A stretch of 64,000 nt of DNA from an uncultured Phycisphaera sp. Its GTDB lineage: Bacteria > Planctomycetota > Phycisphaerae > UBA1845. Both the position numbers and the translations under genes were made by a program. Positions 30,159 to 63,505 of this stretch are shown piece after piece; positions within the stretch are counted from its first letter, which is position 1; each line of letters starts with the position of its first letter. The stretch covers positions 45,977-109,976 of the forward strand of contig CAZCST010000009.1 in assembly GCA_964501365.1 (NCBI GenBank), given 5' to 3'. The notes under the pieces are model-generated. The model worked only from the letters and a program-made list of their open reading frames with translations, had not been told where the DNA came from and searched no databases.

Positions 30159-30161
30159 ATC

Positions 30162-40055: not shown

Positions 40056-40107
40056 GAAATCGAGTCGGGTTCCGAGTGTCCGGCCGAGGCAATTTCCGGG
40101 TTCAGCG

Positions 40108-41315: not shown

Positions 41316-41385
41316 TTGAGGAATGGCGGATGCGGAATGATGAATGAATTTTCGATTTGAGAATATCGATTGTCGATTTGAAACG
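41316..41385. repeat. two heptamer arrays between gspF and gspG
   Basis: gaggaat-ggcggat-gcggaat-gatgaat then tttcgat..tatcgat-tgtcgat. Confidence 0.65.
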
Positions 41386-41422
41386 GCGAAACAAACACAG
41401 GATTGAACGCGGGAGAAATGCG

Positions 41423-41887
41423 ATGCAAAGGAAAATGATTCGAAGGCGATCGGGTTTTACATTGATCGAAGTGTTGCTGGTGGCAGGCATTCTGGCCGTA
41501 CTGGCGGCCTTTGCGATCCCCAGCCTGCTTGGAACTGCCAAGAAAACGCAAATCAAGCTGGCAATGGCGGCGATCGGACGCAACGGACCCATCGCAAAGG
41601 GCCTAACGCAATATAAATTCGCCATGGGTAAATATCCGGACACCGACGAGGGCCTGGCGGCGCTTTACAAGCCCAAGGAGTATCACAAGGAAGATGAGCG
41701 CTACGATGGTCCGTACATGGAGGGCACGCTTGAAGAGCTTCGGGACCCCTGGGGTCAACCCTTTGAGTACCGTTCACCGGGCGAAATGAACGAAAGCGAA
41801 TATGACCTTTGGAGCCGCGGCCCGGATCAAAAGGACGACGGCGGCAAGGAAGGCAGTGACGACGTGAAGAACTGGCGGGAGAAATAG
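41423..41887 (+). CDS. gspG: major pseudopilin GspG
   Basis: RRRSG|FTLIEVLLV, GKYP..DEGLAAL, DPWGQPFEYRSPGE..YDLWSRGPD..DD. Confidence 0.95.
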   Translation: MQRKMIRRRSGFTLIEVLLVAGILAVLAAFAIPSLLGTAKKTQIKLAMAAIGRNGPIAKGLTQYKFAMGKYPDTDEGLAALYKPKEYHKEDERYDGPYMEGTLEELRDPWGQPFEYRSPGEMNESEYDLWSRGPDQKDDGGKEGSDDVKNWREK

Positions 41888-41970: not shown

Positions 41971-41997
41971 ATGGGGCTTCGATGGCGCGGGGTGGTC

Positions 41998-46665: not shown

Positions 46666-48247
46666 AGCACGATCAGGAAAAATCGTATCCATCGACTGGG
46701 ATGCCCGCAGCGTCCGGATCGTTCACGCCTCGATTGGCAAGCGCGGCGCGAAAATCGACCGATTGCTTTCGGCGGAGATTCCGGCAGATGTTCACCCCAG
46801 CGATCCCGCACTGATGGGTGCGCACATTCGCCGCGTGCTGGATCAGGAGCGCATCAAGACGCGTGTGGCAGCCGTGGATATTCCGCGCGATCAGGCGATC
46901 CTGAAGGCCCTCACGCTGCCGTCGGCGAGGGTGGACGACCTTCCCGGCATGGTCGGAATTCAAATTGCGCGCGAACTTCCGTTCCCCATTTCGGAGGCGG
47001 TCATCGATTTCGTATCGACGGGCCCGGCCGCCGAGGATTCCGCGGGGGTGCTGGTGGCCGCTGCGCGAAGCGAAGTATTGGCGCATTACCAGTCCGTGTT
47101 CGAACATGCCGGACTGAAGCTCGAGCGCGTAGGACTCCGCCCGTACGCCAACCAGGTGGCCGTTGCCGAGCTGCTCAAGCACGCCGTGCCCGAGCACGTC
47201 TTGTTTATCGACGTAGGGCCGGTATTGACCGAGATCGACGTACTGCGACAGGGCGTGCTTGCCTTCTCGCGAGCGGCGTCCGTGGTGATTCCAAAATCCT
47301 CACCGACTCAGAAGCAATCGGGCGGGCTCAGACTGACGCTTCCCTCTGACGACTCGCTCAATATGAACGAAGGCGGCATGATCGGGACCGGCACCGGGTC
47401 TGACTCCATCATCCAGACTCTGGTCGTCGAAGTGATGCGTTCGATCGAAGCCTATCGAAGCACCGACGCCGGCGCCGGCATCGATCATGTGGTCATCGGC
47501 GGCGACCTGGGCGTGGAAGAGGCGCTGGCCGAGGCGCTGCAAAAGAAACTCAATGTCACCACGCAGCTATACAATCCCGCCACGGCGTTTGGTTGGGAAC
47601 CGGACGAAGGAGCGGCCGCGGCCGCCTTTGCGTCGGCACTGGGACTGGTCCTGAGTCATGCCTCCGGAAGCTCGCTGCATTTCGACTTTCTCCACCCCAA
47701 GCGGACCGAATCGCAGACTCGCCGCCGTCTGAAAATGGCGCCGGCCGCAGCGGCCATTCTGGTTCTGTTCGTCAGCGCTGCCGGAATCGTCATCGCCCAG
47801 TCGACCAAATCCGACCGCGAGGATCTCGCCCGAATCCAACAGAGCATTCGCGAACTCGAAGAGAAAAAAGATGATTACAAGAAGTTCCAGGATGTCATGG
47901 AGCAGATCCGGCAGTTCGACAGCCGGCAACTCGTATGGGTCGATGTCCTGCACGACGTGATGAAGTCCATGCCGTCCAACGAAGAATGGCTGATCACCAG
48001 CATCGACATGAATCAAAAAGAGCGACGAATCGTATTCAAGACAAAGTCGAAGAATCGGGACATGCCCAACAGCGTGGTCAAGGCGCTCGAGGCATTCCGT
48101 CGGGAAGGAAAGGAAAAACCGCGATTCGACGCCCAGGCAGGCGCGCAATCAGAAAAACGCGGGGAAAAATATCCGTTTCAGCAGGACCTGCGGATCACGG
48201 TGCTGGAGGATGAAACGCCGGCGAAGAAGAGCACAAAAGGAACATGA
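46655..48247 (+). CDS. PilM-like actin-fold domain fused to TM + PilN-like domain (GspL equivalent)
   Basis: VSIDWDARSVRIV, ARELPFPISEAVIDF, IDHVVIGGD; then FDFLHPKR, TM, WVDVLHDVMKSMP..WLITSI; GTG 46655 overlaps gspK end. Confidence 0.8.
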   Translation: MATKARSGKIVSIDWDARSVRIVHASIGKRGAKIDRLLSAEIPADVHPSDPALMGAHIRRVLDQERIKTRVAAVDIPRDQAILKALTLPSARVDDLPGMVGIQIARELPFPISEAVIDFVSTGPAAEDSAGVLVAAARSEVLAHYQSVFEHAGLKLERVGLRPYANQVAVAELLKHAVPEHVLFIDVGPVLTEIDVLRQGVLAFSRAASVVIPKSSPTQKQSGGLRLTLPSDDSLNMNEGGMIGTGTGSDSIIQTLVVEVMRSIEAYRSTDAGAGIDHVVIGGDLGVEEALAEALQKKLNVTTQLYNPATAFGWEPDEGAAAAAFASALGLVLSHASGSSLHFDFLHPKRTESQTRRRLKMAPAAAAILVLFVSAAGIVIAQSTKSDREDLARIQQSIRELEEKKDDYKKFQDVMEQIRQFDSRQLVWVDVLHDVMKSMPSNEEWLITSIDMNQKERRIVFKTKSKNRDMPNSVVKALEAFRREGKEKPRFDAQAGAQSEKRGEKYPFQQDLRITVLEDETPAKKSTKGT

Positions 48248-48373: not shown

Positions 48374-48381
48374 AGTTGATT

Positions 48382-50046
48382 ATGAATCGACGAACAAAAA
48401 TTCTGGCAATTGGATTCGGAGCGGTGGTCGCCTATGTGGCCATCTCGCAGCTGGTCTATCCGAATTGGATCAAACCTCTCTTTACGCTCGATCAGCAAAT
48501 CGCGGAAAAAAATGGCGAGCTCGAGAAGCTCGAAAAACTGCAAAAGGCCTTCGACGACGCCCGTGTCGAATATCGTGACTACGTCGCCCGCATTGGCTCG
48601 TTTGATCCGGGGCAGGTCGAAACGGCCATCCGCGATCGCCTCAACGCCCTGATCGAAAAATACAAACTCGAAAACGCAGGCGTCGCCCCCTCGCGGCCCG
48701 TCGAAGACCGCAAGACCGGCCTGATCACCTCAACCATTACGATCACCGGAACCGGTCCGCTCGAATCGGCCATCGGATTCATGAAAGAGATCGCGGAGCT
48801 TCCGCAGCTGGTCCGGCTGGGAAACCCGGCGATCTCGCCATCCGGGTCGGGAAAGAAGGCCGAGGAACAGGACCTCGTGAATGTGCGACTTCCCATCGAA
48901 GTGCTTGTGTTGCCCAGGAACAAAACTGTCGGCGCAATCGATCCCGCAACTCTGCCAAAGAGCGAGGCTTTTGTCCGGCATGACTCCACGCGGGACTATG
49001 CCGACATCTGGAATCGCAAGCCTTTCATTCCGTATGTTGTATATCCACCACTGAAGGTGGATGTCCAAAAAATAGTGAATGTCGAGGTCGGCAAGCCAGC
49101 TACGATTCAGGCCACGGCCTCCGGCGGCAATGGTGAGTACAAGTTTTCCTGGGCGCCTTCGGACGGACTGACGGAGCCCAATCAGGCGAAAACAGTGGTT
49201 GATTCCTCTGCTCCGCGCACGCAAACCTACACCGTGACCGTGACGGATACCATCAAGGATCACCAGCCGGTTACAGCAACAGTGGCGGTGACGATCCGCG
49301 AGCCTCAACCCGTGGCGAAGGTCGAGCCCGCTCCACCCCCTCCTCCTCCGCCGCCACCACAGCCTGTGCAAGCTGCGACCTGGCCTGACGCGAAGTTCAT
49401 GCAAATCGTCATGACCCTGATGCGCAGCTCCGGCACCAACCGCACCAATGAACTGATGGTCTATAACACGCGAACCAAGGATACGACCTATCACAAAGTA
49501 ACCGAGGAATTTGACGGCGGACGGCTCCTTTTTGTGCATCAAACCGGTGCTGTGGTGGGTAGAAACAAGAAATACTACGTGTACCCGTTGGGCACTACGT
49601 TGGGCGACTGTATGGAATACCAAACCGCGGCGGACTATCCGGAACTGAAGGCCGCCGCGGAACGGGCGATTGCGATGGAAACCGCGCAGGCCGAGGCGAA
49701 AAAGAAAGTCCCGCCGGTCGCCGCCCCGCCGCCTGCAAAGCAACCTGTCGTTCCGCAGCCCGTGGAAGATTCGCACGGCGGAGAAAACACGGCTCCCGCA
49801 GGAGCCAGTGGCCCGGTGGAAAATGTTGCAGATGGGTCAGGTCCGGTTGTACCTGCTGTGAATGCGGATTCAGGAGTTACCGAGCTGATGGGACCGCCCA
49901 GTCCGTCGCCGCAACCTGCACCGCCCACGACACAACAAGACATGCAGTCGCAACCGGCGCCGAAACCACAGGAACCCACGGGGACACCGCCAACACCAGG
50001 CTCGCGCCCCCGCCAGCCCAAGGGCAAGAAACCGGGTCGAGTGTAG
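48382..50046 (+). CDS. GspM/PilO-like + Ig-like + GspC/PilP-like fusion with Pro-rich tail
   Basis: N-terminal TM and coiled coil; TITITGTGPLESAIGFMKEI (PilO-like); IWNRKPF; ASGGNGEYKFSW..TYTVTVTD (Ig/PKD-like); beta-rich C-domain. Confidence 0.6.
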   Translation: MNRRTKILAIGFGAVVAYVAISQLVYPNWIKPLFTLDQQIAEKNGELEKLEKLQKAFDDARVEYRDYVARIGSFDPGQVETAIRDRLNALIEKYKLENAGVAPSRPVEDRKTGLITSTITITGTGPLESAIGFMKEIAELPQLVRLGNPAISPSGSGKKAEEQDLVNVRLPIEVLVLPRNKTVGAIDPATLPKSEAFVRHDSTRDYADIWNRKPFIPYVVYPPLKVDVQKIVNVEVGKPATIQATASGGNGEYKFSWAPSDGLTEPNQAKTVVDSSAPRTQTYTVTVTDTIKDHQPVTATVAVTIREPQPVAKVEPAPPPPPPPPPQPVQAATWPDAKFMQIVMTLMRSSGTNRTNELMVYNTRTKDTTYHKVTEEFDGGRLLFVHQTGAVVGRNKKYYVYPLGTTLGDCMEYQTAADYPELKAAAERAIAMETAQAEAKKKVPPVAAPPPAKQPVVPQPVEDSHGGENTAPAGASGPVENVADGSGPVVPAVNADSGVTELMGPPSPSPQPAPPTTQQDMQSQPAPKPQEPTGTPPTPGSRPRQPKGKKPGRV

Positions 50047-50147
50047 TCGGCGCAGTACCGGGCATTGTGGCAAAACGAACCCCCTGCGGCGAAGTTGGCG
50101 CCGCGCAGAAGTGTGACATATTTCGCTTGAACCAGCGGAGAACTGAT

Positions 50148-53100
50148 ATGACCGTGGCATCCATCGTACGCAATCGAACTTGTTGGGCACTGTTGGCGCT
50201 GACCTGTGTTCTGGGGATTGCCTCCCCCACCCTGGCCCAGACTCAAACGCAGCCTCCCCCCCGGCGCACTCCGCCCAAGACGCAGCCCAAGCCCAAGCCG
50301 GCGCCCGCCGGTCAGCCGGCCAATCCGCAGCCGGCGCAACCTGAGCAACCCAGGACACAGACTGGCGAGCCCGTCGCCGAGCCACCACCCCAGCAGCCCG
50401 CCGGCGATTCGGGCCAGCCCAGCGATGCGGTGATTCGCGACGAAAACGGCCGCGTGCGCATTGACCCCGAAGTGCAACGCAAAATTGACGAAATGCTGAA
50501 GCAGGATGAGTCGGCGCACAAGGCCGCAGAGGGTCAGCCTAACGCCCCCACGCCCAATCCCGCTGCGCCAGGCATGCCCCAGCCAAATCCAAACCCAAAT
50601 CCCGCGGCGCCCGCCGGGACTGTGCCAAATCCGATTCCCGGGGGGGCACAAGCTCCACCCGTAACGCCTCCGGGCAGCCCGACACCTGAGGCCGCAAAGA
50701 CTCCGGCCCAGCGCGCTGCCGAACGACGCGCACGAGCCAGAGGGGGCGCAGACGGAGCTGCGGGCAATCCTCCGGGCGGACAGCCCAACGCCGGGCAACC
50801 CTCTGTTGGTCAGCCGGCCGGGAACCAACCGGCTCCGTACATTCCGCAACCCATTGAGGCCGCGGCGCCAGTCGAACCACCCGGCGAATCAACCGTGCTT
50901 CAGATCGAACCCGAGCCCGAGGTCGATCCCACCCCCCTCGAAGAACGGCGTTTCAAGTTCCGCATCAAGAACGGGACGTATGAGCAGCTCATCAAGGGAT
51001 TTGCCCACCAGACCGGCCTTGGGGTCCTCGGCGAGACGCCCAAGGAGGGCACAGTCACCTTTGAGCCGAACGAGGATCTCAGCTTCCGTGAGGCGCTTAG
51101 CCGCGTTCGCATGTTGCTGTTCAATTACAAGCCGCACGAGCCGTACTGGATGTTTTACGAAGGAACGCACTTACAAGTCATCCGCGTCACGGACTTTTAT
51201 CGAATTCTGCCCACGGATCGAATGTTCCGGTCGCTGGAGGAATTGGATCAGGCAAATCTTTCGGATGACGAAATTGTCCTGGTGATTTACACCCCCAAGA
51301 GCGGCTCGATCTCGGAACTCCGGCAGGTCCGCGACTTCCTGCCCGATTACGTCCGCGTGACCCCGCTCGAAGACGGCAATAGCGTTTCCATCTTCGCGCT
51401 GGTCTCAGACATCAAGAAGTACAGGTTGCTGACGAAAATCTTCGATCCCAAGGGCGCCAACGACCCTCGCGTCACAGAGCGCTTCGACGTTCACAACATC
51501 ACGGCCACGCAGGCCGTCGATCGCCTCCGCCAGCTTGCCGATCTGGACAATGCCCGCGCCGGGACAGCACCAGCTGCACGAGGCCCTCGCGGAGCCACCC
51601 CGCGTGAACCGAGTGCGATTGACCAGATGGCCGATCCGCTGGTCGTCATGATTCCTGACGACTCCCAGAACTACATTCTTGTACGGGGCATGCCCAACAA
51701 GATTGAAGAGATCCGCAAGCTGCTGCCGTTCGTGGACATCAGCCTCGCCCAGGAACCCTACACTCCCGTGGTCATCAAGGTGCATAACGCGGACGCAGGC
51801 GACCTGGTCAGCGCGATTCAGCAAGTGCTGTCGGCTTCCGCCGGGCCGCTGCCTGGCGGTGTTGCTGCACCGGCACCCGCCCCTTCGCCGCGTCGCAACA
51901 AGAAACCTGCTGCCGGCGGCCCCAGTCCTGCGGTTCCGGTCTCAGCTGACTCGATCACCCTTTTCCCTCATCCTACGCAAAACGCGTTGCTGGTGATGGC
52001 GGACGAGGCGGGCGTCAGGAAGGTTCAGGAACTGGTCAACCTTTTTGACGTCAAAGCCAACATTGGTCCGCTTCGCATTCAACTGGAAGTCGCCGATGCG
52101 TCAGAGGTTGTATCAACGGTAACGCAGGTGCTTGGCGGAGGAGGAGGCGCCGCCCCCGGAGTGAAGGGCGCAGCCGCAGCAGCTCCGGAGAGTTTTCAAC
52201 TCGTCCCCGATCCGTCCGGGAGCTCCATCTGGTACAGCGGAAACGAGAGCGATCTGGAAAGGGTGCAATCACTGGTGAAGGCACTGGATGTGGCCGGCAA
52301 TTCGCCAACGCTGCACATCGTGAAGCTGGTTTACCAGCAGCCTTCTTTCGTGGCCGACATTCTGCGGCAGTTTGACGGGGTCGCACCACAGGCGGCAGAA
52401 CCTGCCCCGGCCGGACAAAAGCCAAAGACTCGACGGGCAACGTCCAAGGGGCATTCCGCATCTAAGTTCACGCCTGACGACCAGCAAAAGAAACTTTACA
52501 TTCTTTGCAACACGGATGACTTTAACCGTTATCAGGACATCATCGCCAAGCTTGATCAGCCCGAAATCGAAAAAGACACCTTCATTCGCATTCCGGTGAA
52601 GCACATTGATTCGGCCACGGCCGTGGGCAAGCTGGGTGACATCATGCCCAACACGCCGGTGAATCAGGACGTACGCACCATCGCCGTGGACGGCTTCATT
52701 CTCCTGGTTGGTGCATCGCCCTCCGACGTGGCCGTCATCAAGGAGGTGCTCGCGGAGATCGATAAGCCCTCCACTATTGAGACGCGAACGTTTGTCATCA
52801 AGCATGCCGACCCGGCGGACATCAAGACGGCCATCGAAACGCTTGTGGGCACAGGCTCGTCGGAAGGCCGCAGCAGCGGCGGATCACGGCGACGCCCGCG
52901 TTCCATCGCCTCGCCTGCTCAGGCGGGCGAAGGCGGTCCCAAGCAGGGTGCCGCCTCCGCGCCCAGCACCGATGCAACGGTTTCGGATGACATGACCATT
53001 TTCCAGATTGGAAATCAACTGATCGTGAAGGCAACGCCGGCCGTCCTTGACCAAGTTGCCGCAGTCGTTCAGCAGTTTGACGTTGAAGGCTCGGGTACGG

Positions 53101-56100
53101 ACATGCGGGTCTATTCCGACTTCCCGCCCAATTCCGACATCATCGGGATTTCCGAAACGCTGACTTCTGTCTTCGTCGGTGGAGCGAAGGCGCCGCGCGG
53201 CGCCAGGGGCGCAGCCGCGGTAGGCGGGGGCGGCGCCGAAGGACCGCGATTCATCCCGCAGCCCGCCACGAACCGGCTCGTCATCATGGCCGAGCCATCG
53301 CAATACGGCGAGATCGAAAGATTGCTGAATATTCTTCGCGTTGAGGCGGGCAAAACCGAGCCTTCCATCGTCGAATTCATTCCCGTCGAATACGCCGATC
53401 CCACGGCCTTGGCGGAAGAGATTCGCCCGCTACTGGATATGAAAATTCGCGGACTCGTGGATTCCGGCGAAATTGCTGAGCCTGCGGCAGAAAGCACAAC
53501 TCCGACCGCTGTGCCGCGTCCCAATCGGGCCAAGAAGCTGCAACAAGGCGGCTCAGGGAGCGAGAAATATCACATTGGCGCTGACGCGCACAATGAACGA
53601 ATCGTCATCGCCGCCCCGCAGCGCATCGTGGACGAGGCCAAGCAGCTCATCAAGCAATTCGACGTGCCCGCGAAGGGGGCGAAGATCGTCTTCAAGCAAG
53701 TGACCCTCGATAACGCGTCCCCGGCGGACATGGTCAAGTCCATCAAGGAAATGATCGGCAACCGTTCAGCAACCGCCGCCCCCAGACGCGCAGCCGGCGG
53801 TAAGCCCGGCGCGCCGGGGGCAGCTCCCGCTGCGTCACCGCTGGAGGGTCTTGGCGGCGAAGGACTGGTTGTAACCGAGGCTCCCGGCGGAGGAGCCGTG
53901 CTGCTCAAGGGTACGCAGGCCGAAGTCGATCAGGCCGAGGACTGGATCCACCAGCTTGATTCCATGTCGTCGCGCGGACTCAAGATCAAGCTATACAAGA
54001 TCACCGGTACGGACACGGAAAAACTCTTCGATCTGATCGTGAGCGTGGTGGACGTTGGCGGTGGCGGACACGCTCCCGCGGCCGGTGCGACACCACGTCG
54101 CGGCGCACCGACGAACGGCAGCAAATCCAGTTCATCAGTTGACGACGAGGAATTCTCCACCAGTCGCACCCATTCGGGCCAGGACCTGTATCTCCATGCT
54201 GATCTGATCAGCGACACTCTTCTGGTGGCGAGCAAGCCATCCAAACTGCAGCAGATCGACGATCTTGTGATGCAGTTTACGACAGACAAGACCATCGCGG
54301 GCGCCATCAAGGACACGGATGTACCCAGTTTCCGTTATACGCTGGAATTTGCCGACGCCACCGATGCAAAATGGGATTTGGAGGACTTGATCGATGCAGT
54401 TTGGGAAGGAAAGGAAAAGCCCAAGATCGAGAAGTTCAAGGACATGCTTATTGTCAAATACCCTGACGAAAGCCGGTTCGATGAAATTCGCAAGATGATC
54501 AAGGATCTCGACAAGCCCAGCGAAAAGGAATCCAAACTGGTCAAGGTTTCCAAGGTGCCTCCGGCGGGATTGAGTCCTCGCGATACAGCCATTTGGATCA
54601 AGCAAAACCACCCGGATTGGGACATTGAGATTGAAGATGCCGGAATCGACCAGGAGCAACCAACTTATGGCGTGGAACAACTCAAGCCGATTGATGGCCC
54701 AAAAACGGAATCCCTGAATAAGGCCAAGCCGGCCGCCAGAGGTCGTGTCGATGCCATCACTCCTGGCAGGTTGCCGCTGCCGTTTCAGCGAACCGTCGAT
54801 GCGATCCTGTTCAGCGTTCTAGCGCAAACGCCCCCCGACGAGGAACAACCCGAACCAGGTCAGGAGGAAGTCCAACCCCAGGAGGAACCGGAAATCCAGC
54901 AACCTGTCGCTCAACCTGTTCCTAGAGATTTTGGTGACCGATTGATTCGCCAGGCCGTGACGCCAATATTGCCCCAGTCTCAGGCGCAAAATCCAAAGGA
55001 TTCGGGATCCAAGACAACATCCAAGGACGCAAAAAAGTCATCCAACAAAGGCAAAAAAGCTCGCATTATCTACAACAACAACGATGGTGTGTATTGGATC
55101 GAGAGCGATAAGGACAGCGTCGATGATATTGAGAATTCGCTCGATGATCTGGACAAGGAACTCAAGGACATTGTCGTCGCTCCGGACATCCGCATCTATC
55201 GCGTGCGATACATCGACGTTTATTCTGCGCAGGAGATCATCGAAGAGATGTTCAACGCCACGAAGGCGATGCAACAACAAGTCCAGCAGCAACAGGCACA
55301 ACAGAACGCAATGATGCGTGCCCAGCAGCAACAGCAACTCCAACAGCAGAGATTGCAGCAACAGCAAGGCCAACAGGGACGTGGACAAGAGGGTAAGGAC
55401 GCCGGAAAAAATGGACAGCAGACTCCGCAGCAACTGGCGGCTGCGCAACAGATGGCCCAGCAAATGCAGGTTCCTCAGTTGCCAACCCCTGCTGTCCGCG
55501 TCTATCCCAACCCCAGAGACCGTTCGCTAATCCTGCGCGCGGAGTCCAGCCAATATCCGCACATACTCGAATTGCTGGCCACCATCGACCAGCCCAAGCC
55601 CATCGACAGCAAGACGCGCACCTATCCGCTCAAGCGGGTCAGCGCCACCGAAATGGAGCAGATGCTGCGCGAAACCCTGCGGCTGGATGAGGCGGGCAGT
55701 AAGTCGCGCGCCAACTCCGGCCAGCGAAACCCCAACGTTCCCGGTGGCGGTGCGCAATCCGCGACCGGCCCCGGCGGACAGCTCCCCGAGACCATCCTTC
55801 AGGAAAGTGCGACGAAGAGCCTGCTGGGCGTGGACCCGCAGGACATCACGATCTTTTCCAGCGAGACCGCCAATACCATCATGGCCGTCGCCCCCCCCGC
55901 CGCGCTCGACTACATCGGCAAGCTCATCGAGCAGTTCGAAAGCGGCGACATCCCTGAGCGGCTCACCCGCTTCTATGCGGTTCAACATGCCTCCGTGACC
56001 GACGTTGCCCAGCAATTGGAAGACTATTTCGCGGCCAAGCATCCGCGAACCAGCGGTGGCGGCGGCGGACGCTCGTCCCGCAAGGGCAGCCCTGAAGGCG

Positions 56101-58097
56101 CTTCGCCCGCCGCAGCCTCCCATGAAGGGGGCGGACTCAACGCACCCAGCTTCATCCCCTATGAGCGCCTCAACCAACTCACGGTCCACGGGACACAGGA
56201 GCAGATCACCGAGGTCGAGGAGGTACTGACGCGGCTGGATGTGCCCAGTGAGGAAGACACCTGGCAGGACGTCGCCCTTGCCCATGCCGATGCCAAGCTG
56301 GTCGCTGATACGCTGACCGAGATGTTCGGCGGCGGTGGAGCGGGTGCAGGATCAACCGGCCCCGGCAAACCCGGTCGCCCGGCGGGAGCAGCGTCCGGCG
56401 GCAACGGCGCGAAGTTCATCGGCGAGTCCGGCGGGCGCATCATCTTCTATAGCGCCCCCAAGGCCCGACAGCCGGAAATTCTCGCGACCATCGCCAAGCT
56501 GGAGGAAAAGTCCAAACAAACGTCGCAGCCGCGGGTCATCGAACTCAAGAATGCCACTCCCAGCCAGGTGGCCGAGGCCATCGAGAAGGCTTATGACGTT
56601 CGCCGCACCGGCGCGCAGGGAGGCGCCGCCCCCAAGACCGCACGGTTCACCGTCACAGGGCACGATCCCTCGCATCGCCTCTTCGTAGTGGCCGATGACG
56701 AAATGTTCGCGCAAATCAGCTCGCTGATTACCACGCTGGATCAGCCCGGAAGCAGCAATATCGGCATCGAATTTCGCATTTACCCGCTCCAGTACGCCAG
56801 CGCCAAGGCCGTCCACAGCCAGTTGACCAAGCTGATGACCGACTACATTCAGCGGCTGGGGCCCAACGCACCAAAAATGGAAGCCTTCAGCGTGCAGCCC
56901 GACGAAACCGCCAACGCACTTGTCGTGCTGGGCACGCCGTCAGTCTTCGGTTTCATCGAGGAGAATCTCCGCAAGATCGACACACCGGGTAGCAAGGCTT
57001 CCATGCCGGAAGTGCATGTTGTGAATTTGAAGAACGCGGATCCGGATGCCGTGACGCGAGCACTCACCGAAATCTTCGTGCGTAACGCGGCCAAGTCCGC
57101 CGACGGCGATGCGCCGATTTCGATTTCGGCCGCCAGCGGCTCAAAAGCCGTCATGATCCGGGCCAACGCCGTGGACTTTGCCCGCATCCAGACGGCGATC
57201 AACGAACTCGACACCGATGAGATCGCAACCGGCGGCGAGGTTCGCGTCGTGACAATGCAGTACGGCGACGCATCGGAAATCAAGACGGCTCTCGAGTCGT
57301 ATCTGCAAAAGCCGGCCGGCACGGGAGCGCGAAGCGCCCAGCTTGTCGGTGATGTGCGACTGGCCGTCATGCCGCAGACCAACGCCATCATGATCAGCGG
57401 CGACAAGGACACGCTCGATCGCCTGGAAAGCATCGCCAAAGGCATGGACATCGCCGGTGAGAAAGGCAGCGTTCCGCAGATCATCACATTGAAGTTCGCC
57501 AGCGCCTCGATGATTCTCCCACAGCTCAAGGAAATGTTCAGTGATCCCAAATACGGTGGCGGCCGGAAAGGCTACACGGCCCCGGTCATCGTCGCTGACG
57601 AAGGCTCCAATGCCCTGATCGTCCGCGCGGGTCAGCAGGAACTGACCTCGATCCAGGGGATCGTTTCGGCGCTCGACACCGAAGACAAGGTCGACAAGTC
57701 GGCCCCGCGCATCATCCAGGTGGCGTTGGGGATCAACCTCCAGGACCTTGCCGACGACACGGAAGATACGATTAACGAAACGGCCAAAGCACGGCTGGCC
57801 AATACCAAGGGCGTCCCTGTCCCTGCGATCAAGGCAATAGCCAACCTGCGAACAAATACCATCACGCTTGCGGGCAGTGCGATGCTCTTCGACGAAGCCG
57901 AAGCCTTCATCAAGGCCCAGGAAAAGATGGGTCCTGCGGGCGGGAAGACGACCGTTGTCATCGGCCCCAAGAACATCGCCACGGAGGATTTGCAGCGGTT
58001 GATCGACCAACTGACGCAAAAGCAATCCAGCGGCGGAAGTCATCGCGGCGGTTCGTCCAGCGGCAGCGCACCGCGCCCGCCGCGGACCAACCGTTAG
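50148..58097 (+). CDS. giant exported protein of secretin N0 + ~23 secretin N (NolW-like) repeats, no secretin barrel
   Basis: signal peptide (SPTLA|QTQ); N0-like FKFRIKNGTYEQLIKGFAHQTGL..GTVTF; repeated hxLxxAxAxxhxxxL...xNxLhh.g....h..h..hh..LD units; ends without beta-barrel motifs. Confidence 0.85.
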   Translation: MTVASIVRNRTCWALLALTCVLGIASPTLAQTQTQPPPRRTPPKTQPKPKPAPAGQPANPQPAQPEQPRTQTGEPVAEPPPQQPAGDSGQPSDAVIRDENGRVRIDPEVQRKIDEMLKQDESAHKAAEGQPNAPTPNPAAPGMPQPNPNPNPAAPAGTVPNPIPGGAQAPPVTPPGSPTPEAAKTPAQRAAERRARARGGADGAAGNPPGGQPNAGQPSVGQPAGNQPAPYIPQPIEAAAPVEPPGESTVLQIEPEPEVDPTPLEERRFKFRIKNGTYEQLIKGFAHQTGLGVLGETPKEGTVTFEPNEDLSFREALSRVRMLLFNYKPHEPYWMFYEGTHLQVIRVTDFYRILPTDRMFRSLEELDQANLSDDEIVLVIYTPKSGSISELRQVRDFLPDYVRVTPLEDGNSVSIFALVSDIKKYRLLTKIFDPKGANDPRVTERFDVHNITATQAVDRLRQLADLDNARAGTAPAARGPRGATPREPSAIDQMADPLVVMIPDDSQNYILVRGMPNKIEEIRKLLPFVDISLAQEPYTPVVIKVHNADAGDLVSAIQQVLSASAGPLPGGVAAPAPAPSPRRNKKPAAGGPSPAVPVSADSITLFPHPTQNALLVMADEAGVRKVQELVNLFDVKANIGPLRIQLEVADASEVVSTVTQVLGGGGGAAPGVKGAAAAAPESFQLVPDPSGSSIWYSGNESDLERVQSLVKALDVAGNSPTLHIVKLVYQQPSFVADILRQFDGVAPQAAEPAPAGQKPKTRRATSKGHSASKFTPDDQQKKLYILCNTDDFNRYQDIIAKLDQPEIEKDTFIRIPVKHIDSATAVGKLGDIMPNTPVNQDVRTIAVDGFILLVGASPSDVAVIKEVLAEIDKPSTIETRTFVIKHADPADIKTAIETLVGTGSSEGRSSGGSRRRPRSIASPAQAGEGGPKQGAASAPSTDATVSDDMTIFQIGNQLIVKATPAVLDQVAAVVQQFDVEGSGTDMRVYSDFPPNSDIIGISETLTSVFVGGAKAPRGARGAAAVGGGGAEGPRFIPQPATNRLVIMAEPSQYGEIERLLNILRVEAGKTEPSIVEFIPVEYADPTALAEEIRPLLDMKIRGLVDSGEIAEPAAESTTPTAVPRPNRAKKLQQGGSGSEKYHIGADAHNERIVIAAPQRIVDEAKQLIKQFDVPAKGAKIVFKQVTLDNASPADMVKSIKEMIGNRSATAAPRRAAGGKPGAPGAAPAASPLEGLGGEGLVVTEAPGGGAVLLKGTQAEVDQAEDWIHQLDSMSSRGLKIKLYKITGTDTEKLFDLIVSVVDVGGGGHAPAAGATPRRGAPTNGSKSSSSVDDEEFSTSRTHSGQDLYLHADLISDTLLVASKPSKLQQIDDLVMQFTTDKTIAGAIKDTDVPSFRYTLEFADATDAKWDLEDLIDAVWEGKEKPKIEKFKDMLIVKYPDESRFDEIRKMIKDLDKPSEKESKLVKVSKVPPAGLSPRDTAIWIKQNHPDWDIEIEDAGIDQEQPTYGVEQLKPIDGPKTESLNKAKPAARGRVDAITPGRLPLPFQRTVDAILFSVLAQTPPDEEQPEPGQEEVQPQEEPEIQQPVAQPVPRDFGDRLIRQAVTPILPQSQAQNPKDSGSKTTSKDAKKSSNKGKKARIIYNNNDGVYWIESDKDSVDDIENSLDDLDKELKDIVVAPDIRIYRVRYIDVYSAQEIIEEMFNATKAMQQQVQQQQAQQNAMMRAQQQQQLQQQRLQQQQGQQGRGQEGKDAGKNGQQTPQQLAAAQQMAQQMQVPQLPTPAVRVYPNPRDRSLILRAESSQYPHILELLATIDQPKPIDSKTRTYPLKRVSATEMEQMLRETLRLDEAGSKSRANSGQRNPNVPGGGAQSATGPGGQLPETILQESATKSLLGVDPQDITIFSSETANTIMAVAPPAALDYIGKLIEQFESGDIPERLTRFYAVQHASVTDVAQQLEDYFAAKHPRTSGGGGGRSSRKGSPEGASPAAASHEGGGLNAPSFIPYERLNQLTVHGTQEQITEVEEVLTRLDVPSEEDTWQDVALAHADAKLVADTLTEMFGGGGAGAGSTGPGKPGRPAGAASGGNGAKFIGESGGRIIFYSAPKARQPEILATIAKLEEKSKQTSQPRVIELKNATPSQVAEAIEKAYDVRRTGAQGGAAPKTARFTVTGHDPSHRLFVVADDEMFAQISSLITTLDQPGSSNIGIEFRIYPLQYASAKAVHSQLTKLMTDYIQRLGPNAPKMEAFSVQPDETANALVVLGTPSVFGFIEENLRKIDTPGSKASMPEVHVVNLKNADPDAVTRALTEIFVRNAAKSADGDAPISISAASGSKAVMIRANAVDFARIQTAINELDTDEIATGGEVRVVTMQYGDASEIKTALESYLQKPAGTGARSAQLVGDVRLAVMPQTNAIMISGDKDTLDRLESIAKGMDIAGEKGSVPQIITLKFASASMILPQLKEMFSDPKYGGGRKGYTAPVIVADEGSNALIVRAGQQELTSIQGIVSALDTEDKVDKSAPRIIQVALGINLQDLADDTEDTINETAKARLANTKGVPVPAIKAIANLRTNTITLAGSAMLFDEAEAFIKAQEKMGPAGGKTTVVIGPKNIATEDLQRLIDQLTQKQSSGGSHRGGSSSGSAPRPPRTNR

Positions 58098-58271
58098 GAA
58101 GAGTTCACAGGCATTGCCGGAATGCGTTCCTCCCGGGGAGGAGGACCGGCAAAGTGCGCGCGAAGGCGGCGGGTTTCTTCGTTGCGTAGCTCGACAGGCG
58201 GAGTTATCGTATCACCCCAGTTGGCTCCCCTGGCATCGTAATTGCGGTAACGATCTCACGAGGCGAAGATT

Positions 58272-61200
58272 ATGAACACAAATCAACGTCGGATCGGAAA
58301 GAGTCTGCCCCTTTGGAACCTATTGGCGCTTGCTGTCGTCGCCTGTTGTTCGACGTTCCTGTCGAGCGTTGTTTCTGCGCAGGACAGACCTCGGCGCGCT
58401 CCTGCAATTCCGCCTTCGGCACAACCCAATCCTGAGCAGGTTGCCCAGCCGCAAGTGGATCAGCAGGAACAACCCGTCAGGCCCGCGCAGCGACGCCAGG
58501 TTCCGCGCCAGACACCGGGACTGGAGCCCGGCGCACCCAACCAACCCAACCAGCCCGCGCCGCCGGTAGACCGGGTCTCCGAGATGTTGAAGCAGGTCGA
58601 TCCAGCGATTATCGCCCGGCTGGCCGGGGCCGATGTCACGGTCGAAATTGTCGGCGGGCAAATCATCCTTCACGGACCCGAAGAGGCCGTCAAAACTCTC
58701 GAACTCCTCATTCGGGGCCTCGATGTCGAGCAGGAGCACGAGCGGCCCGTCGTGCAGGTGGTCACGGTCTACGAACGCGATGCAAACGAAATCGCCCGCT
58801 CGCTGGAGGCGGCGCTCAAGCAGGTCATTCACAGGCCCAATCAGACTCCTGAACAGCAGGTCAAGATCACAGCGCTGGCGTGGAATATTCTCCTGGTGTC
58901 CGCAATGCCAGAGGATATCAACTTTGTGATTGACACCATCGAGCAGGTGGATTCCATTCCCGACCCGCTGGGCGGCAAGATCGAGCTCATGCGTTTTCAA
59001 GTGAAGTACCGCAAGGCCAGCGATGTGTCGAAAGAGCTTGAAAAGATCGTCACCCAGATTCGCCAGGCCGGTGGTGCGAACAAGGACAAGACCAAACTTC
59101 AATTCATTCCCAACAACGCGAACAACACCATCACCGTGACGGCCCGCGAAACCGAGCGCGAAAAAATCCAGGCGCTCATCGACCAGATCGACGTGGAGCC
59201 CGTGCCCGGCTACGGCGAAATCAAACTCACGGTTTTCCCGCTCATGCATTCGAAGTCCAATGAACTTGCCAAAGTGATTCAGGATTTGCTCAAGTCACCG
59301 TCTGGGGCGGGCGGCGCTTCGGGAGGTTCCGGAGGCAGCCGGGATTCGCTGGAGGAAACACTGTATCGTCTGATCATCAGCAAGGCCGCGCCCGATGGGC
59401 AGATTACCGATTTGCCGCCCATCGACCTGCAAAAGCCCCTGAAGATCACTTCGGACGAAGGAACCAACAGCCTGATCATTGCGACGCCCGAAGAGAATGT
59501 GTCGCCCATGGCTGAGTTGATCCGTCTGCTCGACGGCGTGCCGCTGGGAGCGGACGTGGCCGTGCGCCTCTTCCCGCTTCGTTTCGCCACCGCCGAGTCT
59601 CTCGCCGACACACTCAAGAAGATGTTTGATGAAGGAAAGAAACTGCCGGAGGATCCAGGTGGCAGCGCCAAGGATGCCGTTCCATCGGAATTGCGCGGCA
59701 AGGCCCTCGTCTATAATGTCGGGATCGTCGCCGATGCCCGGACCAACACCCTGGTCGTTTCCGGTCGCCCCGAGCAGCTCTCTCTGGTCGACGAAGTTGT
59801 TGCCAAGCTCGATCAGCCGTCCACGGCATTGAAATTCCCGCTCCGGCTCATCCCGCTGGAGTTTTCCGACGCGACAGCCCTCGGCGAAACGATCACCACG
59901 CTGTTCAAACAACGCTTCGACGCCGCCCAGTCCTCCGGCGCCGACAAGACGGCTCTCGAACGTGAACGCCTCTTCCTGAGCACTGATCTGCGAAGCAATT
60001 CGCTCATCGTTTCCGCTTCCGAAGAGAACTACAACGAAATTATGGGCATCGTAAAGCAGCTCGACACCAAGCCGGCCAAACTCTTCGATCAAATTCGCAT
60101 CGTCCCGCTGCAGCGTCTGTCAGCCACCGACATGCAGAAGAAGATCGAGGAACTCTGGAAGCGCAAAGCCGAACTCCGCCGCAAGGCCGAACTGATCGAG
60201 GACCTGCCCGTAATCGCCGTGGACACGCGCAGCAATTCGCTCATCGTCGCGTCAAGCATTGAGGATTTCGATGAAATCCAGCGGCTCGTCCGGGCCCTTG
60301 AGAATCAGCCGCTCATCGAGGACACCACGCTCTACAAACTCGAGTTCGCCGACGCCACCGCCCTGGCCTCCATGCTCGATGAACTCTTCAAGGGCATCGC
60401 CGGGCAATCCGAGAACATCAAGGCCCCCACGATCCTCGCCGAGCCGCGCAGCAACGCCCTGGTCGTCGCGGGCACGCGCGACATGATCGAACGCGTCGCG
60501 GAGGTCGTGAAGCGCCTCGACGTGCAGGCCGGTCCGCTCACCTCGATCTTCCGCGTCTATCCGTTGAAGAACGGCTCGGCGGCACAGCTCGCCCCGCGCA
60601 TCCAGGAACTCTTCGACGCCCAGAAGGGCGCCGGCGGTGAGGCCGCCAAGACCCCCGTGGTCGTCATGGCCGAGGAAACCTCCAACAGCCTCGTGGTCAG
60701 CGCCTCGCGCGACATTCATGCGGAAATCGGCGGGCTGATCGAGCTTCTCGACAAGCCTTCGACGATCGCCCGACATTTCCGGATTTTCCCGCTGAAATTT
60801 GCCAAGGCCTCCACCATTTCCGAAAAACTGGAGAGCTTGTTCAAGTCGCAGGCGGAGGGAAGTTCCGGTCGTGCCGACGCCCTCGGCGTGCAGGCCGACG
60901 AGCGATCCAATTCACTCGTGGTCTGGGCATCACCCACTCAAATGACGAACATCGCTGAAATTATTGACAAGCTCGACACCGTTTCGCCGATCCGCGAACA
61001 GATGGTCAAGGTGATTCAGCTTCGTCAGGCTCTGGCCACCGATTTCGCCAAGCTGCTCGAGGACACGCTTGTCGGGCAGGGTGACGCAAAGGACGAAGAG
61101 GCCGTCATTGTTTCCTTCCTCGAAAAAAATCCCGATGGCCGCGAAATTGTCCGAAAACTTCTGCGCCAGGATATCAAAATCAAGCCCGACCCGCGCACCA

Positions 61201-62915
61201 ATTCGCTCATGGTAATGGCCCCGGCCGACAGCATGGCCATGCTCGAATCCATGATTCGCGACTTTGACCGCATTCGACCCATCACCTCGGAAATCCGGCT
61301 CTTCCCGCTGATCAACTCCGATGCCAAGACGATGGTCGATCAACTCGAGCAGCTTTTCCAGACCAAGGGTGGAACCGGCGGCGCGGAGGGCGAAGCCAAG
61401 AGTGAACTCGTCTTTGGCGCCGCTCTCACCCAGAAGGACCAGGAGCAACTCGCCAGCGTTGGCCAGGAACTGCGTTTCGCCGCTGACACGCGGACAAACA
61501 CACTGATCGCAGCCGGCGCCCCCGTCTACCTGACCATGGTTGAAGACTTGGTTCGGTTCCTTGATTCGCAGCAGGCCGAAGACCGCGTCTCCACGGTGTA
61601 TTCGCCCAAATATCTGCCGGCGACCGACTTGCAAAAGGCCATCAAGGGCTTCGTCGATCAGGAAATCGCCGTCCTGGGCGAGGGCGACACAGAGGAATCG
61701 CGCGTCCGCCGCCAGGAACGACAGGTATCTGTCGAGAGTCTTGGCGACGTGGAAAAAGGCAGCAGCAGCCTTCTGGTGGGAACCAGCTCGCGTTCCTATC
61801 AAAAGACGATGGACATGATCCAGTCGCTGGATCGCGCCGAACCCCAGGTGATGATCTCCGTGCTCATCGCCGAAGTTTCTCTCACGGATGACATTGACCT
61901 CGGCGTGGAAATTGCAGGACAGGAATTGGACTTCACGAGGAATGCCGTCGTCGGGCCCAATGGAGTCATCGAAGGCAGTGATTTTGATACTGTAGCGGGA
62001 ACCGTTCTCGGTGCCGCCGGAAACGGACTTGGGTTTAACTTCACGGTCACCGGTGAAGACTTCAGCTTCCTGCTCCACGCGCTCCAGACCGATAGCCGCC
62101 TCGAAGTTCTCTCCCGCCCGGTGCTCATGGTCCGTAACGGCGAGGAGGGCAAAATCACCATCGCCGAGGAAGTTCCCATCGTGTCGAGTTCGCAAATCAC
62201 GGACTCTGGACAGATCAACGTCACCCCGGGCCGTGAGGAGGTCGGCATCATCCTCACCGCCACGCCCCACATCAGCCCCGATGGCTACGTCACCATCGAG
62301 CTGAGCCAGGAGATTTCCAACATCGGCGCAAACGTGCAGCTCTCTTCGGACCTCAGCCAGCCGATCTTCAACAAGCGCGAAGTGCAGACCAACATCACCG
62401 TCCGCGACGGCGAGACGGCCATCGTGGGAGGTCTGATTCAGTCCAATGATTCCCATAGCGAAACGAAGGTGCCTTTCCTAGGGGATATTCCCGGCCTGGG
62501 CGCTCTCTTCCGCACGACCACTGGCAAGAACAGCAAGACGGAACTTCTTGTGGTGCTCACCGTCGACGTGCTTCGCACTGACCAGGACGTCAAGCAGATG
62601 TCCATCGAGCAGCGCGACAAGTTCATCCTTCCGGACTCCATCCGCCAGAGTCCTCTGATGGAAGGCCTGCGCATCAAGCCCGAGGAATGCGGACTGGGCC
62701 CCCAGAATCGAGATCATGTTGACCGCAAACCGGTTCCCGCGGCCACCTCACCAGCGATCCTGCCAGACGATCGCAAGGGAGTGCAGCAGGAGTACGGTCC
62801 CAAGCCCAAGATTTACGGACCGCCGATCAACCGGGGAAATTCCACCAGCACGACCTCGACGGGCGTCTACGGGCCTCGCATTGCCCGTAACGGCGCTTCA
62901 TCGGATTCAAACTGA
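58272..62915 (+). CDS. gspD: secretin GspD with 12 complete N repeats plus one partial, and C-terminal barrel
   Basis: signal peptide; EPQVMISVLIAEV, LEVLSRPVLMVRNGEEG.I, EVGIILTATPHI, VGGLI, KVPFLGDIPGLGALFR. Confidence 0.95.
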   Translation: MNTNQRRIGKSLPLWNLLALAVVACCSTFLSSVVSAQDRPRRAPAIPPSAQPNPEQVAQPQVDQQEQPVRPAQRRQVPRQTPGLEPGAPNQPNQPAPPVDRVSEMLKQVDPAIIARLAGADVTVEIVGGQIILHGPEEAVKTLELLIRGLDVEQEHERPVVQVVTVYERDANEIARSLEAALKQVIHRPNQTPEQQVKITALAWNILLVSAMPEDINFVIDTIEQVDSIPDPLGGKIELMRFQVKYRKASDVSKELEKIVTQIRQAGGANKDKTKLQFIPNNANNTITVTARETEREKIQALIDQIDVEPVPGYGEIKLTVFPLMHSKSNELAKVIQDLLKSPSGAGGASGGSGGSRDSLEETLYRLIISKAAPDGQITDLPPIDLQKPLKITSDEGTNSLIIATPEENVSPMAELIRLLDGVPLGADVAVRLFPLRFATAESLADTLKKMFDEGKKLPEDPGGSAKDAVPSELRGKALVYNVGIVADARTNTLVVSGRPEQLSLVDEVVAKLDQPSTALKFPLRLIPLEFSDATALGETITTLFKQRFDAAQSSGADKTALERERLFLSTDLRSNSLIVSASEENYNEIMGIVKQLDTKPAKLFDQIRIVPLQRLSATDMQKKIEELWKRKAELRRKAELIEDLPVIAVDTRSNSLIVASSIEDFDEIQRLVRALENQPLIEDTTLYKLEFADATALASMLDELFKGIAGQSENIKAPTILAEPRSNALVVAGTRDMIERVAEVVKRLDVQAGPLTSIFRVYPLKNGSAAQLAPRIQELFDAQKGAGGEAAKTPVVVMAEETSNSLVVSASRDIHAEIGGLIELLDKPSTIARHFRIFPLKFAKASTISEKLESLFKSQAEGSSGRADALGVQADERSNSLVVWASPTQMTNIAEIIDKLDTVSPIREQMVKVIQLRQALATDFAKLLEDTLVGQGDAKDEEAVIVSFLEKNPDGREIVRKLLRQDIKIKPDPRTNSLMVMAPADSMAMLESMIRDFDRIRPITSEIRLFPLINSDAKTMVDQLEQLFQTKGGTGGAEGEAKSELVFGAALTQKDQEQLASVGQELRFAADTRTNTLIAAGAPVYLTMVEDLVRFLDSQQAEDRVSTVYSPKYLPATDLQKAIKGFVDQEIAVLGEGDTEESRVRRQERQVSVESLGDVEKGSSSLLVGTSSRSYQKTMDMIQSLDRAEPQVMISVLIAEVSLTDDIDLGVEIAGQELDFTRNAVVGPNGVIEGSDFDTVAGTVLGAAGNGLGFNFTVTGEDFSFLLHALQTDSRLEVLSRPVLMVRNGEEGKITIAEEVPIVSSSQITDSGQINVTPGREEVGIILTATPHISPDGYVTIELSQEISNIGANVQLSSDLSQPIFNKREVQTNITVRDGETAIVGGLIQSNDSHSETKVPFLGDIPGLGALFRTTTGKNSKTELLVVLTVDVLRTDQDVKQMSIEQRDKFILPDSIRQSPLMEGLRIKPEECGLGPQNRDHVDRKPVPAATSPAILPDDRKGVQQEYGPKPKIYGPPINRGNSTSTTSTGVYGPRIARNGASSDSN

Positions 62916-63505
62916 TGGCCGGCCGCGCTTGGTTTGCTCGCAGGTTTCCGCGCATTGTCGCTGCATCAACCAGCGCGGCACTGGGATTGTCCCTGGCCGG
63001 CTGTCAATTGTTTCATCGTGAAAAAGCGCCTGCACCGCCCCCCCCACACCAATTTCGGCCTTCAAGCACACCCCGCGCGCCGCGGTCGGCGGAAACGGTG
63101 CGGGTTCAGAGCGTCATCTGCCTGTTCGATCAGAAGCCCTGGATCAGCGCGGACATGGCCGGCGACCGGGATCCCGAGGGCGTTCAATACCGTATTTTTC
63201 TCAACGCAGGTGGAGATCGAGGCGTTCCTCGCGACGGAACCATTCACGTTGAGATGTACCGCATGGGACGCGACGAAAAAGGCGAGCAAACCCGGGTGCT
63301 GGTCAGCGACTGGCATTATCCAACGTCTCAGTTTACCCGTGTGTCGGCCAACCTGCTGGGAATCGGCTACCACGTGCAGCTTCGGTGGGCCAAGAAAGAT
63401 GTCGCCGGAAGCGAAGTCGAAATTGTCACGCAATTTGAGGACGAAAGCGGAAACATCACGCGCGGGGCCACCAAACGACTCCGGGTCCCGAAATACTCCT
63501 CGTAA
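62915..63505 (+). CDS. lipoprotein, candidate pilotin/secretin accessory
   Basis: lipobox LSLAG|C with Gln at +2; TGATG coupling to gspD; beta-rich body. Confidence 0.7.
   Translation: MAGRAWFARRFPRIVAASTSAALGLSLAGCQLFHREKAPAPPPPHQFRPSSTPRAPRSAETVRVQSVICLFDQKPWISADMAGDRDPEGVQYRIFLNAGGDRGVPRDGTIHVEMYRMGRDEKGEQTRVLVSDWHYPTSQFTRVSANLLGIGYHVQLRWAKKDVAGSEVEIVTQFEDESGNITRGATKRLRVPKYSS

Follow-up and report, generated by a model that had tools for sequence, protein, structure and literature searches.

Two adjacent genes appear to encode the complementary parts of a giant GspD-type secretin in Phycisphaerae

A barrel-less giant chain and a barrel-bearing secretin encoded side by side

We analyzed a 64,000-nt stretch of DNA (hereafter, the window) from an uncultured Phycisphaera sp. 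(Planctomycetota; Phycisphaerae; UBA1845; assembly GCA_964501365.1, contig CAZCST010000009.1, positions 45,977-109,976 of the forward strand), focusing on two neighboring open reading frames (ORFs), ORF-A and ORF-B, that close a type II secretion system (T2SS) operon with the order gspF-G-(H/I/J-like)-K-L/M-like. The secretin of such systems, GspD (PulD, XcpQ, EpsD; PF00263 + PF03958; TIGR02517), canonically is one chain of about 650 aa with the domain order N0-N1-N2-N3-barrel. The two genes described here resemble GspD in the GspD-type barrel of ORF-B, in the GspD/XcpQ-like N0 and N domains of ORF-A, and in the accompanying operon with gspF, G, K and L/M-like genes, but differ from it in that about 36 N domains are distributed over two chains, N0 and the barrel belong to separate polypeptides, and one N domain is split.

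ORF-A, on the + strand, starts at 50067 (GTG) or 50145 (ATG, MTVASIV...) and ends at 58097, comprising 2650 aa counted from the ATG. ORF-B, on the same strand, spans 58272-62915 and encodes 1547 aa, with a low-complexity C-terminal tail that extends to 62915. The features of the two genes, with the evidence for each, are as follows, all repeat scores being independent E-values (i-E) obtained with a hidden Markov model (HMM) that was built iteratively from the window's own repeats.

50145-50237, + strand: ORF-A signal peptide, aa 1-31, MTVASIVRNRTCWALLALTCVLGIASPTLAQ (sequence, hydropathy)
50238-50945, + strand: ORF-A Pro/Gln/Ala-rich low-complexity linker with one conserved short helix, RIDPEVQRKIDEMLKQ (sequence, alignment)
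50964-51185, + strand: ORF-A predicted N0 domain, aa ~274-347 (AlphaFold2 fold, Foldseek)
51273-51440, + strand: ORF-A divergent N1-like beta-alpha-beta-beta-alpha domain, aa ~377-432 (AlphaFold2 secondary structure at residues 113-168 of the model; high conservation in the alignment of homologs)
51474-54521, + strand: ORF-A, first block of secretin N repeats (11 copies), aa 444-1459 (i-E 2e-9 to 8e-21 with our HMM; Pfam Secretin_N)
54522-55187, + strand: ORF-A central acidic/Pro-rich linker of ~220 aa, aa 1460-1681, containing a weak half repeat at aa ~1640-1672
55188-57932, + strand: ORF-A, second block of secretin N repeats (10 copies), aa 1682-2596 (i-E 1e-12 to 3e-22 with our HMM)
57933-58025, + strand: ORF-A terminal half N domain, beta1-alpha1, TTVVIGPKNIATEDLQRLIDQLTQ (own repeat HMM, positions 3-37 only)
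58026-58097, + strand: ORF-A basic Ser/Gly/Arg tail and stop codon (sequence)
58098-58271, + strand: spacer between ORF-A and ORF-B, 174 nt (sequence)
58272-58562, + strand: ORF-B signal peptide (aa 1-36) and Pro/Gln linker (sequence, hydropathy)
58563-58742, + strand: ORF-B conserved helix followed by a half N domain, beta2-beta3-alpha2, ADVTVEIVGGQIILHGPEEAVKTLELLIRGLD (matches positions 26-66 of Pfam Secretin_N)
58752-61841, + strand: ORF-B, block of secretin N repeats (12 copies), aa 161-1190 (i-E 3e-15 to 1e-22 with our HMM; Pfam)
62079-62573, + strand: ORF-B secretin beta-barrel, aa 1270-1434 (PF00263, E 3.5e-45; 154 bits against a cutoff of 27.5)

In ORF-A, our HMM identified 21 solid repeats (11 + 10), and Pfam Secretin_N matched the protein in 14 stretches (E 2.9e-150). 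When the central linker was scored as a whole repeat with a long insertion, a signal, and a weak one, came from the second half alone; once this half repeat and the divergent domain seen in the AlphaFold2 model are added, the chain totals 22-23 N domains plus the terminal half. The repeats of the window are old, with a mean pairwise identity of 19%, and form no tandem repeats at the DNA level, which led us to reject recent tandem duplication as their origin.

Because neither Pfam nor a sequence search of the PDB produced a match to the N0 region, the N0 call in ORF-A rests on a structure model. An AlphaFold2 model of this region, computed with ten homologs in the alignment, reached a mean pLDDT (the predicted score in the local distance difference test) of 70.6, with 78-88 in the block containing N0. 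The modeled N0 adopts a beta-alpha-beta-beta-alpha-beta-beta fold, followed by two short helices, the divergent domain and the regular repeats. The best Foldseek matches in the PDB were XcpQ N0-N1-N2 (5mp2, 4e9j), the N0-N2 region of GspD from enterotoxigenic Escherichia coli (3ezj) and PulD (6hcg), with E-values of 7e-10 to 1e-8. The N0 region is also the most conserved part of the ORF-A protein family, and a relative in which the secretin is not split gave a faint match to PF21305 (gspD_N0). No N0 was found in ORF-B, so that, on this model, the platform-contacting domain would be present in ORF-A only.

Conversely, no match to the PF00263 barrel was detected in ORF-A, and a phmmer search with the ORF-B barrel returned nothing in ORF-A or its orthologs. 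Only two 19-residue windows of ORF-A exceed a Kyte-Doolittle mean of 1.6, one of them being the signal peptide, and the hydropathy scan revealed no hydrophobic or membrane segment besides this peptide. ORF-A alone is not a secretin. It nevertheless scores 405 bits against the TIGR02517 GspD cutoff of 351, by its summed N repeats alone, the best stretch covering profile positions 125-289, and automated pipelines can therefore mislabel it as a complete secretin on the strength of this 'equivalog' cutoff. ORF-B scores 571.8 bits against the same cutoff and is aligned through profile position 600/600. Its N domains comprise 12 solid repeats by our HMM, plus a partial one at aa 67-154 that matches the second half of the model only, and Pfam Secretin_N covers the protein in 11 stretches (E 2.3e-128). 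The best PDB sequence matches of ORF-B are the 15-mer GspD structures 5wq7 and 6hcg (E 2e-42). ORF-A and ORF-B thus count as members of the GspD/secretin family only together, the former on its own being without a barrel and the latter without N0. In place of the single polypeptide of a secretin, we find a stop codon, the 174-nt spacer and separate signal peptides, an arrangement kept in ~40 species.

A sequence-only reading of this DNA had called the same two ORFs, and both are borne out. It had given ORF-A a signal peptide, a Pro/Gln linker, an N0-like domain and about 23 N repeats, a count that proved right within one domain, and the N0 assignment has gained the predicted fold and its XcpQ/GspD matches. 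Its contention that ORF-A carries no barrel or membrane anchor withstood the PF00263, phmmer and hydropathy scans, and Pfam, TIGR02517 and our HMM agree with its description of ORF-B as a protein that has a separate signal peptide and 12 N repeats, lacks N0 and bears a normal barrel.

We also observed that the ORF-A helix RIDPEVQRKIDEMLKQ (aa ~120-140, window ~50500-50560) resembles the ORF-B helix DRVSEMLKQVDP that precedes the half domain (aa ~98-117, 58563-58620); judging from this likeness, the two may represent a docking element common to both proteins.

Conservation of the two-gene form, the split N domain and the unsplit relatives

A homolog search with the N0 module matched only fragments from Phycisphaerae and Planctomycetota metagenome-assembled genomes (MAGs). 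A subsequent profile scan of one genome per GTDB species with this module yielded 58 species-level loci (L numbers below), all from Phycisphaerae-type MAGs, which we scanned with the repeat, barrel and N0 models. Wherever the DNA of the locus was long enough, the N0-bearing ORF was barrel-less, encoded 2450-3320 aa with 19-28 repeats, and ended in a stop codon, and a second ORF, with repeats and without N0, started at most 300 nt after that stop. This second ORF contained a barrel in 11/11 loci reaching the barrel region, and its signal peptide is conserved across species. Altogether, the pair is kept, with the two genes adjacent, in ~40 species-level Phycisphaerae genomes. The repeat number is ~12-13 for ORF-B in all species and variable for ORF-A. 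An ortholog at 53% identity is collinear with ORF-A over 2684 columns, indicating that individual repeats are positionally conserved, and N-terminal identity among the ORF-A homologs drops to ~31-35%.

The boundary between the two genes falls within an N domain. All ORF-A orthologs end in a conserved beta1-alpha1 motif, GP.GG..T.II.V.N...DEIQRLIDQLTQ, located 7-73 aa before the C-terminus in 37 loci. All ORF-B orthologs begin, past the signal peptide and linker, with the conserved helix followed by the motif GA(D/E)V.VE.VGDQ.IL.G.E.....LE.LI..LD (beta2-beta3-alpha2), which we found at the N-terminus of the second ORF in ~37 loci. When joined, the two halves from the window match positions 1-66 of the 69 in Pfam Secretin_N with 24.7 bits; alone, the ORF-B half covers positions 26-66 and the ORF-A half gives no match. 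We also joined the halves of 31 species into one profile, which hhalign matched to columns 1-81 of the 82 in the whole-repeat profile with a probability of 97.1% (E 7e-11). Both half domains are as conserved as the adjoining whole domains, and their conservation shows the halves to be, by all appearances, under selection. Among the 34 repeats of the window, all insertions of at least 5 aa lie in the alpha1-beta2 loop, the same loop that contains the gene break, and the gene thus seems to have broken at the one position of the fold that tolerates interruption.

The spacer contains no consensus promoter or terminator. It includes a second in-frame stop, at 58248-58250, and the frame relationship of the two genes is not conserved, the genes being in different frames in L003; on both grounds, we rejected fusion of the two chains by readthrough or frameshifting. 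The C-terminal tail of ORF-A is Ser/Gly/Arg-rich and basic in 33/33 species compared, with a net charge of +3 to +20, and measures 8-73 aa among the orthologs. Pairing of this tail with an acidic ORF-B linker was considered and rejected, given that the linker charge is negative in as many species as it is positive (15 each).

The origin of the split emerged from a search with the last 969 residues of ORF-A against 1.8 billion representative proteins, which produced 1773 matches, 406 of these below 1e-30. Among the best 150 of the 1773, about half are barrel-less proteins that end like ORF-A, and ~70 are single chains, 3000-5532 aa long, in which a homologous N0 module is combined with 30-57 repeats and a barrel at the C-terminus. 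One protein of the former type, P0036 from an NCBI MAG, has 5437 aa and 52 N repeats, and the half-domain motif likewise forms its end; a chain of the ORF-A type can, therefore, reach twice the length of the one in the window. The named proteins of the latter type come from Phycisphaerae MAGs and carry generic names only ('secretin N-terminal domain-containing protein', 'type II secretion system protein D'), an example being MFP4104932.1 with 4756 aa. A 4756-aa unsplit secretin also shares the gene order, gspE-F-G-...-K-pilM-like-x-secretin-lipoprotein.

These single-chain giant secretins of other Phycisphaerae MAGs have in common with ORF-A and ORF-B the operon order, the N0 module, tens of N domains, the barrel and the downstream lipoprotein, but are one polypeptide in which the domain homologous to the junction is intact and contains a short Gly/Arg loop. 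In three of them, P0064, P0098 and P0138, homologous beta1-alpha1 is followed by this loop and then by beta2-beta3-alpha2 of an ordinary whole domain, and BLASTP maps the C-terminus of ORF-A and residues ~125-131 of ORF-B to neighboring positions in three unsplit proteins. These alignments show, to the extent that homology can, a shared origin of the two genes with the single-chain giants. In this lineage, the gene evidently was cut in the alpha1-beta2 loop of an N domain located ~13 domains before the barrel: as the comparison shows, the ORF-A part would have kept N0, ~23 N domains and beta1-alpha1, and the ORF-B part, having gained a signal peptide of its own, would start with beta2-beta3-alpha2 and continue into 12 N domains and the barrel. 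In a neighbor-joining tree of the N0 module, the unsplit forms cluster; the rooting is uncertain and we do not claim a single event.

Several loci depart from these patterns. In P0061, P0080 and P0118, all from Phycisphaerae MAGs, ORF-A-like and ORF-B-like parts are fused in frame, with a signal-peptide-like hydrophobic stretch remaining between the basic tail of the former and the half domain of the latter; they resemble secondary re-fusions or, alternatively, genes that possess an internal start. In the complete MAG chromosome CP070827.1 (~3.99 Mb; L001/L037), the ORF-A homolog breaks off at ~470 aa, next to a gene for a DUF772 transposase, with no secretin gene after it, and the secretin system appears to be disrupted. 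Additional breaks within ORF-A homologs, namely, an in-frame TAG in L011 (~14072), which by analogy with the window protein would lie in a Gln-rich loop, and frameshifts in L002/L056 (~8900-9000) and L058 (~14960-15080), could be sequencing errors or further fissions.

The type II secretion operon

The genes that surround the pair in the window are listed below.

40054-41313, + strand: gspF-like inner-membrane platform gene, the first gene of the operon in the window (Pfam T2SSF, E 4.8e-52)
41357-41887, + strand: gspG-like major pseudopilin (Pfam T2SSG, E 3.5e-22, plus N_methyl)
41971-44617, + strand: three small ORFs at the minor-pseudopilin position (41971-42831, 42828-43631, 43628-44617; N_methyl match, E 4.9e-4, in the third only)
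44614-46665, + strand: gspK-like minor pseudopilin (Pfam T2SSK_1st, E 3.7e-14, and T2SSK)
46595-48247, + strand: PilM/GspL-like assembly-platform protein (Pfam PilM_2, E 1.7e-26)
48376-50046, + strand: 556-aa bitopic protein: N-terminal transmembrane helix, coiled coil, Ig/PKD-like module, Pro linker, conserved C-terminal domain (sequence)
62915-63505, + strand: 196-aa lipoprotein with the lipobox LSLAGC, its start overlapping the ORF-B stop codon (sequence)

Thus, of the T2SS components, we found GspF, G, K and a PilM/GspL-like protein, GspD in the form of two genes, and for GspC a weak HR-domain hint. No prepilin peptidase was seen. The first two of the three small ORFs are candidate minor pseudopilins, assigned by position alone, and the same block of three small genes occurs in loci L001 and L061. 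The 556-aa bitopic protein is kept upstream of ORF-A in 54 loci. A profile of its C-terminal domain has a single, non-significant match in the PDB, to the GspC HR domain 7oio (E 0.42), which is a weak hint only; the protein is a candidate GspM/GspC-type partner for N0. The 196-aa lipoprotein belongs to no Pfam family; a homologous lipoprotein (LIGC) lies 3' of the unsplit giant secretin in L061 (BLASTP E 6e-10), and we regard the protein as a candidate pilotin or accessory protein. In the window, cmk and mutS are located upstream of gspF (39281-41313), whereas the operon of L061 (343-3270) is headed by gspE.

Possible assembly into one channel and alternative explanations

To our knowledge, all characterized secretins have two to six periplasmic rings, all of them on the barrel chain. 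The same small alpha/beta fold also builds periplasmic rings outside a barrel chain, as in the N0-like lipoprotein DotD of Legionella and in SctJ/SctD of type III secretion systems; these proteins, however, have one to three domains and are anchored by lipid or transmembrane segments, unlike ORF-A, a soluble chain of ~23 domains ending in a half domain. The largest characterized secretin documented is PilQ of Thermus thermophilus, with six N rings (N0-N5) on one 757-aa chain, where extra beta-alpha-beta-beta-alpha rings lengthen the secretin to span a wide periplasm (PMC5745081). The genes described here encode about six times as many domains, on two chains. A split secretin has a precedent in the T2SS-derived system of mitochondria, in which a barrel-bearing GspD is accompanied by separate Secretin_N proteins, GspDN1-3, with GspDN2 representing the C-terminal and GspDN3 the N-terminal half of a single N domain, and a GspD-GspDN1 interaction reported from yeast two-hybrid (Horvathova et al. 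2021, PMC8134430). The likeness is an architectural analogy only: both cases feature a barrel protein without N0, an N-only protein and half domains at the break, but the mitochondrial system is eukaryotic, has single small N-domain proteins and no N0-bearing giant, and its genes are unlinked. Given that the organisms and the break points differ, the two splits are independent. The novelty suggested by the sequence-only reading is limited by this precedent. Neither giant nor split secretins of Planctomycetota turned up as described in the searchable full-text literature, in which most subscription journals are outside coverage, so that absence is not proof. The single-chain giants likewise appear to be undescribed in this literature.

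Taken together, these observations make it probable that ORF-A and ORF-B are two products of the fission of one giant GspD-type secretin and work as one channel. That the two genes form one system had been proposed from the sequence of the window, and the proposal is supported in two ways: in each Phycisphaerae locus whose DNA is long enough, an N0-bearing, barrel-less gene is directly followed by a secretin gene that lacks N0, and the two genes are collinear with the single-chain giants. The accompanying idea that ORF-A is a dedicated extender added to a secretin has to be abandoned: it is instead the N-terminal two thirds of a giant secretin turned into a separate gene. Moreover, going beyond that proposal, the complementary half domains suggest a concrete mechanism by which the two chains might dock.

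The physical assembly, ring formation by the barrel-less chain and the length of the channel we infer to be as follows. Both chains would be exported by Sec. ORF-B would multimerize in the outer membrane, probably as a 15-mer as expected from the closest solved relatives, perhaps with the help of the 196-aa lipoprotein. Each ORF-A chain would contribute its orphan half domain to that of one ORF-B chain, and the resulting hybrid ring would hold the two homo-oligomers together 1:1, in register. The N rings would stack into a continuous periplasmic conduit of ~36 rings, with the N0 end docked on the inner-membrane platform through the GspL/M-like proteins and, possibly, the GspC-HR-like domain of the upstream ORF, and the GspG pseudopilus would act through this conduit. 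Ring height in solved secretins is roughly 3-4 nm, and ~36 rings would therefore form a stack of the order of 100-150 nm. The broader proposition, namely, that Phycisphaerae build a trans-envelope T2SS conduit of ~36 rings (up to ~57 in the unsplit form) with a length of the order of at least 100 nm, several times that of any characterized secretin, and that in one large clade this conduit consists of two polypeptides that a split N domain, complemented in trans, holds together non-covalently, is more tentative, and we consider it plausible but somewhat short of probable.

Several considerations weigh against a single channel formed by the two chains. When isolated, the N domains of secretins mostly stay monomeric or associate weakly, and we know of none that self-assemble robustly; N0-N2 rings are often disordered even in intact secretins. 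Therefore, a chain without a barrel may not close rings alone. A single-sequence AlphaFold2 model of the fused junction between the ORF-A tail and the ORF-B head was uninformative (pLDDT 39.6), no partner for the basic ORF-A tail was identified, with the ORF-B linker not being consistently acidic, and the assignment of the partner for N0 is weak. The operon does not include gspE, and no GspE-type Walker A motif is found anywhere in the window, so that the ATPase must lie elsewhere in the source genome. Finally, the sequence-only reading invoked the enlarged, irregular periplasm of Planctomycetes. An enlarged, invaginated periplasm is documented for Planctomycetia, but a 2025 review, which makes no mention of secretion systems, states that internal membranes and invaginations appear to be absent in Phycisphaerae (PMC12673574), and a stack of ~100 nm has no obvious place in their envelope.

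Alternatively, with the same fission origin, the ~23 domains of ORF-A could serve as a flexible, beads-on-a-string tether or spacer that links the platform to ORF-B or sets the distance between the membranes, the true channel consisting of the 12 rings of ORF-B only. ORF-A has no barrel, the part that nucleates multimerization in known secretins, and contains long disordered loops and the ~220-aa central linker; its repeat number, 19-28 (52 in P0036) compared with ~12-13 in ORF-B, is what one would expect of an adjustable spacer. We nonetheless consider such a role unlikely, if well worth keeping in mind, because the same domains belong to one secretin chain in the unsplit relatives, the conservation of every single repeat from species to species speaks for specific contacts in the rings, and the conserved half-domain junction implies 1:1 registration with ORF-B.

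This junction bears equally on the possibility that ORF-A functions independently of ORF-B, for instance as a separate periplasmic ring or a scaffold of the inner-membrane platform, with the half domains being tolerated remnants of fission. Barrel-less proteins of the same fold do occur elsewhere (DotD, SctJ, SctD), and the charge of the ORF-B linker fails to complement the basic tail of ORF-A. However, the half domains are kept as strongly as whole ones across a divergence that brings N-terminal identity down to ~31-35%, the genes lie next to each other in all cases, and ORF-B is without an N0 of its own to reach the platform, all of which makes independence quite improbable. That the split is an artefact or a decaying pseudogene, produced by a sequencing or assembly error that introduced a stop or frameshift into one giant gene, is a notion to which the few loci with extra breaks in ORF-A (the frameshifts in L002/L056 and L058 and the in-frame TAG in L011) might lend some credence. 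It is effectively refuted by the recurrence of the ORF-A stop, the spacer and the fresh ORF-B signal peptide in ~40 independent assemblies at the same domain boundary, by the two in-frame stops between the genes in the window, and by the intact ORFs of 2400-3300 aa across species.

A family with 30-57 predicted rings would show that the periplasmic vestibule of a secretin can be extended almost without limit, and one may ask how the piston action of a pseudopilus, the loading of substrates and gating would operate over such a distance. The two-gene form is a natural experiment that separates ring stacking from barrel-driven multimerization, and its defined, conserved split-domain junction offers a testable and perhaps reusable module for protein-protein coupling. 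These systems also point to an unknown envelope architecture in the abundant, uncultured Phycisphaerae: if the ~36-ring conduit is real, it would require either an unrecognized, very wide periplasm or a new geometry for assemblies of secretin N domains.

Elsewhere in the window, at 28006-32834, we noted a triad of genes for a PrkA kinase, a DUF444 protein and SpoVR, a conserved stress module of the yeaG-yeaH-ycgB type that is unrelated to the secretin genes.

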